A stretch of 64,000 nucleotides of DNA, from NCBI GenBank assembly GCA_964016885.1, contig OZ024756.1, forward strand, positions 5,890,001 through 5,954,000, read 5' to 3'. The notes beneath the pieces are model-generated. The model ran no database searches. It was not told the origin of the DNA and was given only the letters and a program-made list of their open reading frames with translations. The first letter of the stretch is position 1. Each line of letters opens with the position of its first letter. Below, piece by piece: positions 43,155 through 58,142 of this stretch. Made by a program: the position numbers and the translations under genes. Source of the stretch: Eledone cirrhosa. Its lineage: Eukaryota.

Positions 43155-43405
43155 TAGGAACGAGTAGGACCCCTACGGCTGAGCTCAAGCCGTATCGACG
43201 GCTAATTCTGGACTAAATGAACATTTTTATCCTGGTTTAAGTATACCAGTCTAAACATTTTCATTTCGTCCAGAATTAGCCGTCGAAACGGCTTGAGGTC
43301 AGCCGTCGGGGTCCTACTCGTTCCTATTACCCACTCTACTACCCTAAGTATTGAGTACTTTGGTGCGTTATTGTCCACCTGGTTCCTTACCACATTTCCC
43401 TCGTT
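43155..43405 (+). mobile_element. Foldback half-hammerhead element (family also at 52915, 53205, 57951)
   Basis: Arms 43155-43221 / 43260-43326; GTC-GAAA-CGGCT tgaggtc AGCCG-TC-GGGGTCC; (TA)n on both sides. Confidence 0.85.
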
Positions 43406-45684
43406 ATATATATATATATATCCTACATATATATATATATATATATATATAGTCAAGTGTCTGTATATAGGTCTTGTGTATGTGTTTCTTGTATCTATGT
43501 TTGAATATACATGTGTGTGGCTATTTTTGTAGTCATCTGTCAGTGAACTTTTATACATATGTACATATGTATGTATGTATATATATAAATATATATATAC
43601 ATATTTATATATATATATATATATATATATATATATATATATATATATATATATATATATATATATATATATATATATATGAAGTAATTCCATCGGAAAA
43701 GTCCAGGAAAAAAGAGTGCTCTATGTAAGCAACAGAGCTTAATTATTATTATTATGTAATAAACAACATAAGGCAATTATTCCATTTACCAGTGGTTTCT
43801 TAAAAGCAAAAGGTTTTGCTTTCAATCCTCAGAATGAAAAATCCTGGTTTGTTTATTGAATATGGATTCTAAAAACGAAAATGCAATCTATATGAAAGTG
43901 AGGCTGGAAAAGGGAGAAGGAAAGGAAAAATAAAATAAAATAAAACTACACATGCAAACACACACAAAAAAACCCAAAAGCATACTTACACACACACACA
44001 TATATACACATATAATTTGCACGCATACACATATACACATACACATACATATACACATATATATACATACATATATATATATATATATATATATATATAT
44101 ATACATACACATACATACACATATATATATATAAAGAGCGTACACCTACACACACATACACATATATATACACATATATATATACATACATATATTCATA
44201 CATACACACGCACACACACACACACACATATACACACACACACACATATATATACACATGTACATATCCATACATATATATATATATATATATATATATA
44301 TACACATACATATACACACATATACACATATACATACACACACACACACACACACACACACACACACACACATGTGTGTCTACAAGCCTACACATACACA
44401 CACACATATATATACACACACATATACATACATTCACACAAACATACAACGTACATACATACACATACATGAATGCACTCCACTACATATTAACACACGC
44501 AAATAAATATAAGAAAAAAATATATAAATAATATTAACAAATATTTGACAGCGATACATGCCCCAGCTAACAGGACAGACACGCGTGGTAAGTAATACAC
44601 ACATAAGCGCATATACATACGTTCGAAATAGTAAACACATACACACACTCTCACACATAAATATACATATACAAATACATAAACACGTACATACACATAC
44701 ATACGCAAACACGTACACGTATACAATATAAACACACACATGTATATGTAATTATATACACACACACACACATATACATATATATATATATATATATATA
44801 TACATAAAAAAATATAAAAATATAAACGCACACACACATATAAATACGTAAACACACATATACATACATAGCTAAACAATTATACACATGCAAATACGTA
44901 TATATCAAAAGAACACACACACATATATACACACACACACACCCACACACAAACCCACACATACATAAAAATAAATAAAAACACACGCAACATATACATA
45001 CATACACATACATATACATATATACATATATACATATACATATATATATATACACACATATATACACAAATATATATATATATATATATATATACACACA
45101 TACACGTACACATACACACATGCATACACATACACACACACATATACATGTGTGTATGTGTAAAGCTCAGTATTAGATAAGACAAATGAACCTTACATAA
45201 ACGTATATATAGTAGTAAAGTAATAAAGCCATACAAGGCAATTAATCCATTCACCAGAGGTTTCTTAAAAGCAAAAAAAGTTTCCTTCAATCTTCAGAAT
45301 GAAATATACAAATATATACACACATACAGACACGCACACACACATATATATATATACATATATATATATATATATGTACATATATATATATATATATATA
45401 TACAGACATATATACATACACACATATACACACACATACATACACATATATATACATACACAAACATATACGTACACGTATACATATATACACACAAAAA
45501 TACATACACATACACATAGGTATGTGAAGGGCAAAACAAAAAGAATATATGGGGTGGGGGGCCTAGAGGAGGTAAAAATATAAGGGGAGGTAAGGGAGAA
45601 AAAAATATTTTTTAAATACAAGAGTACAGAAGGTAGAAGCAGCAAAATAAAAGCCGTAGCAAAAGTAAAGAGCAGAGAAGGAGT

Positions 45685-46368
45685 TCAAGGCGGTTGATTT
45701 ATCGTAGGAGTGTCAATCCAGTTACAGATCAGATGCGATTTCAGATGAGGACAGCATCTGAAGATCTCAGTCTTAGAGTTAAGGCAAGCGGAAGTGTCTC
45801 TCAAGTTTAGCAAAATCCTATACTTTTCTGTGGTACACAAAGAACAATTCTTTGTGCCCCTTTGGTACTCCCTCGAATGGTCTAATATAGACCAATCAAT
45901 AGAGTACGGGATATTACTATCCTTGAGATCCCATACCTTACTTGCGAGGGCCGTTGATGTTCGTTTATCTGAGTGTTTAAAAGAAGCGACATGTGAGTAA
46001 AATCTGGTTTTAAACCTGTCCTGGGTCATACCGACATATCGCTCGCTTCTGGCTGGCTGGTTGTTGATAACTGGCGTTATTTTAGCCTCATAAACGACAG
46101 ATTTTGTTTTACATTTACCCTGCAATGGGCATTCATCCGGTTTCCTGCAACTGCATCCTGGATTTATCCTCGTACGGTTTGAACTGGTGATTTTGGATTT
46201 CATGGATGGACAACAAGAGTAGCTGATCTTAACTACATTCCTATTAAAAATCTTATAATATCTATGAATAGGAGGAAAATGTTTGTCTAATAGTTCAAGG
46301 AATTTCCTTCCTACATTAGTTTTGACATTTAGAGAGAAGGGGGGTGTGAACCAAATAATCTTCCTTTT
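45685..46368 (-). pseudogene. PLE linker + GIY-YIG endonuclease, open frame but 5'-truncated
   Basis: KRKIIWFTPPFS..VKTNVG..FNRNVVKISYSC, CSC..CPLQGKC, VVYEA..RYVGMT..RFKTRF..H, CSLCTTEK, LNSKTE..CPH; frame extends upstream of the listed ORF 45685-46203. Confidence 0.93.
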
Positions 46369-47060
46369 CCAAATAATCTTCTTTTAAACACTCAGATAAA
46401 CGAACATCAACGGCCCTCGCAAGTAAGGTATGGGATCTCAAGGATAGTAATATCCCGTACTCTATTGATTGGTCTATATTAGACCATTCGAGGGAGTACC
46501 AAAGGGGCACAAAGAATTGTTCTTTGTGTACCACAGAAAAGTATAGGATTTTGCTAAACTTGAGAGACACTTCCGCTTGCCTTAACTCTAAGACTGAGAT
46601 CTTCAGATGCTGTCCTCATCTGAAATCGCATCTGATCTGTAACTGGATTGACACTCCTACGATAAATCAACCGCCTTGAACTCCTTCTCTGCTCTTTACT
46701 TTTGCTACGGCTTTTATTTTGCTGCTTCTACCTTCTGTACTCTTGTATTTAAAAAATATTTTTTTCTCCCTTACCTCCCCTTATATTTTTACCTCCTCTA
46801 GGCCCCCCACCCCATATATTCTTTTTGTTTTGCCCTTCACATACCTATGTGTATGTGTATGTATTTTTGTGTGTATATATGTATACGTGTACGTATATGT
46901 TTGTGTATGTATATATATGTGTATGTATGTGTGTGTATATGTGTGTATGTATATATGTCTGTATATATATATATATATATATATGTACATATATATATAT
47001 ATATATGTATATATATATATGTGTGTGTGCGTGTCTGTATGTGTGTATATATTTGTATAT

Positions 47061-56394: not shown

Positions 56395-57635
56395 GAAAAA
56401 GTGGTCTACGAATTCGGTAAACGCAAGTTTTGTGAAGTCGCAGAGGAAAGAGAGAGAGAAAAAAATTCCATACCAGCTCGGTCAAGACCGCGCGAGAAAA
56501 GAATTACACACAGGTCAAACTTGAAGGAGGAGGAGGAAAGAGGAGGAGGAGGAGAGGTAGTGACAGAGAATGAGTGAGTGAAAGTTGAGGAGAGGGTAAC
56601 AGAGAGAGAGACTGCTAGAAGTGGTAAAGATACAAGGAACGAAACAGACGAAGGCAGCATGGAAAAAATATATGTGTAAATATGATAATAATGGAGCTGC
56701 GGCGTTGCAAATGGGATACATATGAAAAAGTGAGTCCTTCATCAGTGACCCTCCAACCGTCCTCGGCATTTCATCGCTTTAAGGGCCATATGCCTCAGGT
56801 TGGTGCGAACAACGGCTAAAAAAAGTCGTTGGGACACGTAAACAAAGGGGGACGCTAGAGTAACAACAAAAAAGTTTAAGCAACGGAAAGTGAGTAGAAA
56901 TAGACAAGTCACAGATCTCTATGAATATAAACTCTGTGAAATCGTGAACAAGAGACGAAAGACCATCAAACCTGGTTGAAATGTGAGCAAAGAAAGAATT
57001 TCGCCCAAGTTTGACGGGGGGGAAAAAAGAGAGAGAGAGAAAGGAGAGAAGAGGAAGAAGAAGAAGAAGAAGAAGAAGAAGATAAAGGGGTCTGGTCTAC
57101 GAATTCGGTAAACGCAAGTTTTGTGAAGTCGCAGAGGAAAGAGAGAGAGAAAAAAATTCCATACCAGCTCGGTCAAGACCGCGCGAGAAAAGAATTACAC
57201 ACAGGTCAAACTTGAAGAAGGAGGAGGAAAGAGGAGGGGGAGGAGAGGTAGTGACAGAGAATGAGTGAGTGAAAGTTGAGGAGAGGGTAACAGAGAGAGA
57301 GACTGCTAGAAGTGGTAAAGATTCTTTCCTTGCTCACATTTCAACCAGGTTTGATGGTCTTTCGTCTCTTGTTCACGATTTCACAGAGTTTATATTCATA
57401 GAGATCTGGTACTTGTCTATTTCTACTCACTTTCCGTTGCTTAAACATTTTTGTTGTTACTCTAGCGTCCCCCTTTGTTTACGTGTCCCAACGACTTTTT
57501 TTAGCCGTTGTTCGCACCAACCTGAGGCATATGGCCCTTAAAGCGATGAAATGCCGAGGACGGTTGGAGGGTCACTGATGAAGGACTCACTTTTTCATAT
57601 GTATCCCATTTGCAACGCCGCAGCTCCATTATTAT
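56395..57635. mobile_element. 691-bp unit, partial tandem plus 315-bp inversion, between TA tracts
   Basis: Direct repeat 56402-56631 / 57093-57322; inverted repeat 56685-56999 / 57321-57635. Confidence 0.88.
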
Positions 57636-57950
57636 TATATATATATATATACATATATATATATATATACATATGTATATATATACATATATATATATAT
57701 ATATATATATATATATATATATATATATATATATATATATATATATATACACGTATGTATATATATATATATATATATATATATATATATAAATATACAC
57801 GTATGTATATATATATAAGCAAAAAGGTTATTTCATTTGTTGGTAATTCAACAAATATTCTATAAATATAGTTTCCATTTATTAATATCATTGATATATA
57901 TATATATATATATATATATATATATATATATATATATATATATATATATA

Positions 57951-58142
57951 GCGAAGGAAATGTGGTAAGGAACCAGATGGACGATAACACACCAAAGTAC
58001 TCAATACTTAGGGCAGTAGAGTGGCTAATAGGAACTAGTAGGACACCGACGGCTGAGTTCAAGCCGTTTCGACGGCTATTTCTGGACTGAATTAGCCGTC
58101 AAAACGGCTTGAGCTCAGCCGTCGGGGTCCTACTCGTTCCTA
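57951..58142 (-). mobile_element. Foldback half-hammerhead element
   Basis: Arms 58029-58142 centred at ~58085; same family as 43155 and 53205. Confidence 0.85.

Follow-up and report, generated by a model that had tools for sequence, protein, structure and literature searches.

Introduction

How does a Penelope-like element (PLE) come to lie head-to-head with a truncated copy of itself, and why should the centre of such a palindrome fall inside a hammerhead ribozyme? The question is raised by a 64,000-nt stretch of the Eledone cirrhosa genome (assembly GCA_964016885.1, contig OZ024756.1, positions 5,890,001 to 5,954,000 of the forward strand; hereafter the window), in which four short palindromes start at 43157, 52915, 53206 and 57951. 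The host genome measures 3.0 Gb and is rich in (TA)n. How PLEs form inverted pseudo-long terminal repeats (pLTRs), and whether PLE hammerheads cut in vivo, are open questions, and the function of these ribozymes is called unclear by Craig et al. (2021, PMC8557442); the family described here gives base-level, testable predictions for both. A preliminary description of the window had proposed that nascent cDNA snaps back on the ribozyme's own stems and primes the second arm. Our analysis points elsewhere: the palindromes probably arose from twin-primed cDNAs that reached the RNA's 5' end, ran off it and were end-joined in (TA)n. The inverted 5'-truncated layout and the idea of self-priming are already known, and the map of the junctions to two positions of the element, -58 and -17, adds to this. 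A literature search, made mostly outside subscription journals and supplements, turned up no study that places the inverted junctions of PLEs at a cap site or a hammerhead cut.

Layout of the palindromes

Positions in the element are given as offsets from the first T (0) of a one-sided 80-nt tail, and L-numbers denote individual genomic copies. All four palindromes share the order (TA)n, antisense arm, sense arm, tail, (TA)n (Table 1). Those at 43157, 53206 and 57951 (copies 1, 3 and 4) belong to one family, and that at 52915 (copy 2) to a diverged sister family. Each carries the 3' half of a type I hammerhead, namely the stem II 3' strand (-52 to -41), GAAA (-40 to -37), stem III and the stem I 3' strand, with the predicted cut after the C at -18. 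The preliminary description was thus right that four palindromes exist which keep the hammerhead 3' half, and only that half, so that the copies cannot self-cleave in cis; they also are, as it had said, independent inverted-pLTR insertions of a PLE.

The turns differ from copy to copy. The arms of copy 1 end at -80 and -82 around a 6-nt filler in loop II, and the 38-nt loop formerly ascribed to this copy is mostly a mismatched paired arm. Copy 2 turns at about -57/-60, copy 3 at -51/-51 on an AATT self-palindrome in the stem II 3' strand, and copy 4 at -58/-52 as read from the sequence (the ungapped parser over-extends it to -64). The earlier statement that the turn is always in stem II holds for stem-loop II in the broad sense, but both arms end in the stem strand in one copy only, and a stem II 5' strand paired with the 3' strand was found in none of the four. 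Two more inversions had been placed in ribozyme stems. The centre at 53725-53801 does lie in the stem III loop, but the element belongs to a different family and its 2-nt CT overlap is out of the stem III pairing register; at 6291, in a third family, one arm indeed stops in stem II, but the partner site is about 130 nt off and the overlap is 1 nt. A mismatch at -58, with A in the tail-less and C in the tail-bearing arm, recurs in the same direction in L001, L005, L017 and L026 (43157 included), copies that are partly query-selected.

Identity and abundance of the family

The 39-nt tail pattern has 15,019 exact matches genome-wide and a variant pattern 5,356, over 20,000 tails in all, against 0 for the reversed controls, and therefore the matches are not due to chance. 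Strand-switch joints at -58/-57 are present in raw Illumina reads of another sample (5 of the 15 rows listed), and about 3,000 raw reads per run show the tail-less arm running into (AT)n at +2. Since the same structure occurs in raw short reads of another sample, the assembly chimeras that had been named as an alternative do not account for it.

Most copies are stubs of 100-200 nt. Full-length units measure about 3.55-3.6 kb, and in them the tail continues into a leader and an open reading frame (ORF) of 790 aa. This frame carries QFDIESYY, YxDDG and YIGLT, together with RLRWRTFFY (the RWK motif with K to R), HSDKTGN (DKT in place of DKG) and the endonuclease (EN) motifs CNLC (CxxC) and ACKH (CxH); a CxCX5C linker, CNCPDGSIC, was read from the DNA of L226, and its third C is mutated in L227. 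Pfam and PDB searches with the whole 790-aa protein gave no match, a protein fragment gave a weak GIY-YIG match (E=0.054), and the nearest Atlas clusters (0.96-0.99) carry HTH_animal, GIY-YIG and RVT_1. pLTRs, tandem and inverted insertions and a tail at one end are all present in family copies. The AT runs that flank 131 foldbacks have medians of 33 and 37 nt, and are shorter than 6 nt in 11 and 12 cases.

By the features listed in PMC8557442, the four palindromes are assigned to a Hydra-clade PLE as its head-to-head stubs. With this clade of C-terminal EN+ PLEs, which includes Hydra-1_Obim, the family shares RW(R), DKT, CxCX5C, CxxC/CxH and a GIY-YIG at the C-terminal end, as well as the hammerhead in the pLTR, the (TA)n target and the inverted 5'-truncated copies with a one-sided tail, a layout that is standard for EN+ PLEs according to the same paper. 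It differs in size, as units of the clade are generally below 3 kb with a tail of 30-40, and, as far as the published description goes, in the U3-A8 or C3/A8 ribozyme core, the long stem-loop II and the prevalence of such short stubs. Palindromes of this kind should be annotated as PLE ends, not as miniature inverted-repeat transposable elements (MITEs) or miRNA-like hairpins.

Intact hammerhead 5' halves number 2,074 genome-wide. The intact copies that had been anticipated thus exist, but their cores are TTGANAA or CTGANAA (TTGAGAA/TTGATAA or CTGAGAA/CTGATAA) and not CTGANGA. A U3-A8 core, a described PLE hammerhead variant (PMC4209133), occurs in several subfamilies, and C3 with A8 in many copies. 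Among the Rfam matches listed (150 of 215) there is no hammerhead at the four elements, and the HH9-like matches sit in a 469-nt tandem array near the end of the window.

Breakpoint maps

Copies for the maps were chosen by tail match alone, and the BLAST-picked loci L001-L030 were left out of the counts because the query favours similar turns. Set A comprises 96 matches from the start of C1 (out of 100 listed, duplicates dropped) with 65 foldbacks and is mixed; set B comprises 92 matches in 90 loci (the first 90-odd of 100 listed) with 69 foldbacks and represents a young, uniform subfamily. A gapped parser over-extended through a variant reference and ungapped parsers were used instead; these mis-score the indel copies L061, L068, L076, L091, L120, L246 and L295.

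The outer arm ends are fixed at 0/+2 and +80, and the inner ends pile up at -58 to -52 and at -17. Among set B, 46/92 tail-bearing and 44/69 tail-less arms end at -53 to -62, a further 17 and 15 at -41 to -52, and none between -63 and -139. The mode is -58, with 16/69 tail-less and 12/92 tail-bearing ends, plus 12 of the latter at -57. Set A gave 42/96 tail-bearing and 34/65 tail-less ends at -53 to -62, four and five at -63 to -84 and none at -85 to -114; additionally, 14 of its 96 tail-bearing arms end at -13 to -18, a few of them being indel artefacts. The sister family, with its different downstream sequence, stops at the equivalent TTAGTT position, and by eye 0 of its 30 matches extend into the upstream 5' half. 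Simple non-inverted truncations occur at the same walls in L287, L326, L110 and L115. Breakpoint mapping, which the preliminary description had put forward as a check, therefore found breakpoints that are indeed non-random, but they are piled at -58 and -17 and do not follow the paired stems.

The 69 junctions of set B comprise 19 blunt ones, 17 with a 1-nt overlap, 28 with filler and 5 with an overlap of 2-6 nt. The tail-less arm is the longer one in 25 of these copies and the shorter one in 26 (by at least 10 nt in 10 vs 5), and in six long copies (L064, L067, L080, L096, L103 and L265) it exceeds the other arm by 50 to 1,300 nt, reaching -1453 vs -150 in L064 and -1058 vs -62 in L067. Target-site duplications are mostly unreadable in (TA)n, with 2 direct ones found in 131. 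Jumps from the wall to other sense positions are seen in L237 and L095 and, by eye, in L242 and L323. L095 (3150-3800) and L323 contain tandem 257-nt units that begin at -61, include the tail and end with the first codons of the ORF; these suggest either jumps from one short RNA to another or a small unit that is non-autonomous. Some fillers duplicate arm sequence close by, namely in L297 (up to five times), L269, L281, L295 and L301; we take them to resemble templated insertions of polymerase theta or slippage of the reverse transcriptase (RT).

The walls at -58 and -17

The wall at -58 is the A of TTAGTC in loop II (TCAGTC, TCAGTA or TTAGTT in relatives), which we take to be the +1 base of the initiator consensus. 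Where the partner arm does not account for the base past -58, this base is G in 11/16 cases, as compared to 18/62 at other ends (one-sided p=0.005; the position was picked on set A and tested on set B), an excess whose weight as evidence is reduced by its resting on 16 ends, with four copies contributing two each. The genome-wide counts at -59 (G 3,256, A 624, C 2,812) are confounded by partner-arm and variant bases and were not relied on. In contig runs the read depth drops about 20-fold from one side of the wall to the other, which is a poor measure, and a probable restriction cut near -51 distorts the depth in restriction-site-associated DNA sequencing. Penelope of D. virilis has an internal promoter with an initiator and a downstream promoter element (DPE; PMC2377424), and in L1 and SVA an untemplated G marks capped templates at full-length 5' ends (PMC4859970). 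The initiator-like TTAGTC/TCAGTC together with the extra G indicates that -58 is likely a capped Pol II start within the pLTR.

The second wall, -17, is the first base after the predicted hammerhead cut. A stop of both arms at this base was counted in 87 loci, as compared to 1 locus for the control offset -19, a comparison weakened by its single, imperfectly matched control and by the loss of fillers shorter than 2 nt. The first added base at -17 was A in 59, T in 21 and C in 20 cases (hand count of the 100 rows listed, with a pattern that excludes G). The C:T ratio is thus 20:21 at -17 vs 11:2 at -58 (p=0.02), and such a difference in the added base is expected for an uncapped vs a capped end. 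As far as the sequences allow, -17 is likely the 5' end left by predicted hammerhead cleavage of longer transcripts, and the ribozyme likely cuts in living cells.

Formation of the palindromes

We regard it as probable that the stubs as a whole are explained by twin priming with run-off. The 80-nt tail has a start site on either side, and at each of these sites one of the two cut target strands would prime a cDNA. Both products would run off the RNA 5' end, with lengths of about 60 and 140 nt on an RNA starting at -58 and of 17 and 97 nt on a cleaved RNA. The two free ends would then be trimmed and joined by end-joining repair, or the RT would jump, as may have happened in L237, L095, L242 and L323; arm ends between -57 and -50 would be trimmed run-off ends. 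According to this mechanism the centre lies inside the ribozyme only because the family's likely start site is in loop II, so that the short RNA would never have had the ribozyme 5' half. The foldback would then not be the cause of ribozyme loss, contrary to what had been proposed, as the short template already lacked that half. Both start sites (0 and +80) of L224 (950-994 and 1030-1074) open with TAT, matching the (TA)n target, and continue with a similar CTC...GAG(T/C)ACT stretch; single-sequence folding of the two is weak (z -0.6 and -1.6).

Several elements of this scheme have precedents. In L1 twin priming each cDNA covers a part of the RNA that the other does not; the product here is a palindrome because both cDNAs would copy the same stretch from fixed starts. 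Priming of a second cDNA by the second target strand and the untemplated 5' G are common to both systems (PMC4859970). Poseidon of Anolis carolinensis (PAc; Frangieh et al., 2024, PMC11167929) shares with the present family two RT start sites bounding the tail, an AT-rich target and a predicted dimer, and in vitro both target strands were cut and extended from these two sites. In that study, as far as its main account goes, no RNA-seq reads ended at the hammerhead cut, cleavage was not needed in vitro and inverted junctions were not addressed, whereas here genomic junctions pile up at the predicted cut and at the likely start. Arkhipova et al. (2013, PMC3846280) already proposed self-priming for the palindromes of Penelope, which likewise have a palindrome at the inverted junction, a tail on one pLTR and an Inr-like motif in the pLTR; the junction geometry seen here mostly misfits that proposal, and an antisense template is not needed.

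Several observations weigh against twin priming from a capped start. The arm haplotypes of set B differ at only 22 of 2,876 sites, and such concordance fits one arm copied from the other equally well and does not separate that case from twin priming. A search for discordant arms returned mostly arms of neighbouring insertions, with L055, L293 and four A/C cases at -58 being ambiguous. Overlaps of at least 2 nt were scored in 20/65 junctions of set A, a figure raised by errors of the parser where indels or variant references occur. No clear DPE match was seen by eye, and about 12 of 25 sampled G bases at -59 genome-wide can derive from the partner arm. None of 20 ORF-bearing copies stops at -58 to -62 in the upstream pLTR and 15 of them reach -129 or beyond, so that read-through transcripts or seamless jumps would be needed. 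Finally, the minimum free energy fold is a three-way hammerhead for L284 and not for L080 (one of two intact copies; z about -0.2), and the consensus fold of eight intact copies yields stem I only, with no compensatory pairs or covariation.

Copying in cis has to be considered in two versions. The first is the snap-back of nascent cDNA on hammerhead stem II or III with self-priming of the second arm, to which the location of most centres within the stem-loop II region lends some appeal; L041 is joined in the exact stem III register, a few junctions use the AGCCGT/ACGGCT hairpin (L079, L299), and the overlaps of 2-6 nt could represent a minority class. However, the product expected from stem II, loop II sense directly after the inverted stem strand, has 0 matches genome-wide vs 2,074 for the matched intact pattern, 64/69 set B junctions have an overlap of at most 1 nt, and the stem II 5' strand lies beyond the end of most arms. 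In many copies the tail-less arm exceeds its partner in length, though cis copying needs a longer tail-bearing arm, and five other foldbacks in the window turn at least 58 nt upstream of a hammerhead core. Snap-back is thus largely refuted for the bulk of the junctions, and we consider it very improbable as the general origin of the palindromes. The second version, akin to the self-priming of PMC3846280, lets a single cDNA run to the RNA end, gain a few bases, fold back on 1-3 nt and be copied, after which the endonuclease cleaves the inverted dimer at 0 and +80 and the dimer integrates. The concordant arm haplotypes speak for it, as do the walls often shared by both arms (4/4 sampled tail-less arms at -17 have -17 partners) and symmetric C-filler-G junctions in L312, L319 and L329. 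Against it stand L266, L290, L292, L255, L320 and L272, whose arms are equal and separated by 0 or 1 nt, an arrangement that leaves no loop and hence cannot be made by a hairpin, and the copies in which one arm, be it the tail-less or the tail-bearing one, exceeds the other by up to kilobases. Additionally, in L225, L227 and L236 the inverted tail-bearing arm extends upstream beyond the 5' end of the direct arm, a geometry that cis copying cannot produce. Duplication of the flank in inverted form stays at the level of the control, L266 excepted (5/131 vs 5/391, mostly low complexity), and PAc primes both target strands in vitro (PMC11167929). We hold a fold-back dimer to be unlikely.

One could also argue that twin priming is right but that -58 is a roadblock for the RT or an RNA processing site (a bound protein, a tertiary fold or the splice-acceptor-like TTTAG), and not a capped start. 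ORF-bearing copies cross -58 freely, the sequence there resembles a 3' splice site and the G excess is modest. On the other hand, several subfamilies and the sister family have this wall at the A of a hexamer that resembles an initiator, the bases added at -58 and at -17 differ in the way expected of capped and uncapped ends, and no common upstream exon sequence is found at the junctions, which makes a roadblock or processing site distinctly unlikely. Asymmetric loss of the centre is established for palindromes, and long inverted pairs do exist in this family, so the stubs might be long palindromic insertions that lost their centres afterwards through hairpin nicking or slippage. Such losses leave the single-base walls at -58 and -17, the empty zone from -63 to -139 in the young subfamily and the non-inverted truncations at the same walls unexplained, and their probability is accordingly very slight. 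A hairpin MITE of a DNA transposon, the refuting alternative of the preliminary description, would be short, palindromic, very abundant and located in TA, just as these copies are, and read or assembly chimeras could be added here. Fixed terminal inverted repeats and a uniform length were, however, not found; instead the copies have a one-sided tail, a different junction every time, continuity with the RT-encoding ORF of a PLE and with intact hammerheads, and the same structure in raw short reads. We give MITEs and chimeras practically no credence.

Should twin priming with run-off be correct, the stubs could be read as a fossil library of 5' rapid amplification of cDNA ends. They would then record, base-exactly, a capped start in loop II and a hammerhead cut, cleaved RNAs would have been reverse transcribed in the germ line, and inverted pLTRs would be two joined run-off (strong-stop-like) cDNAs, formed when neither jumps to a longer template. 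We offer this wider reading tentatively, with chances a little short of even.

Other elements in the window

The coordinates of the four palindromes and of the two inversions from other families are collected in Table 1.

Table 1. Parts of the four palindromes and of two inversions from other families, in window coordinates
Feature	Coordinates	Strand
Copy 1, inverted arm without tail (-1 to -80), adjoining (TA)n	43157..43236	-
Copy 1, filler of 6 nt where the arms turn, in loop II	43237..43242	
Copy 1, tail-bearing arm (-82 to -1): loop II, stem II 3' strand, GAAA, stem III, GTC, stem I 3' strand	43243..43324	+
Copy 1, one-sided 80-nt tail; full-length copies run on into 5' leader and ORF	43325..43404	+
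Copy 2, sister family: inverted arm 52915-52966; sense arm from TTAGTT (52968; A at 52970); tail from 53030	52915..53109	+
Copy 3, foldback, both arms to -51, centre on AATT (53253-53256)	53206..53303	+
Copy 3, tail	53304..53383	+
Copy 4, tail	57951..58030	-
Copy 4, tail-bearing arm, which stops precisely at -58, the wall (A of initiator-like motif)	58031..58088	-
Copy 4, tail-less inverted arm, ending at -52	58089..58140	+
Other PLE family (relative at 9217-9354): foldback, turn in stem III loop, 2-nt overlap	53638..53801	-
Third family (relatives at 5640-5857 and 9595-9878): inversion at 6290/6291, arms unequal by ~130 nt, 1-nt overlap	6071..6382	.

Hammerhead-like motifs are also found elsewhere in the window. 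Foldbacks of other families lie in (TA)n at 32359-32780, 49661-50011, 50184-50619 and 50662-50985; their whole hammerhead-like motif points outward and its core is 58-106 nt from the centre. A near-perfect foldback at 43744-48622 has arms of about 2.2 kb that are 99.9% identical, each with two hammerhead-like motifs, and a PLE endonuclease-like sequence near its centre. The 469-nt tandem array (60534-64000; 7.4 copies, 99% identical) has a minimal hammerhead on the minus strand of each unit and is retrozyme-like. At 6400-9350 there is a PLE-like insertion with inverted ends and 140-nt repeats, whose pLTR is a relative of the foldback at 53725. The remaining repeats are a tandem repeat of about 550 nt at 1-2620 (by eye), a 39-nt satellite of about 224 copies that occupies 8.6 kb at 33945-42513, and a long region at 17300-21050 that by eye resembles the AP-endonuclease and RT of a long interspersed nuclear element.

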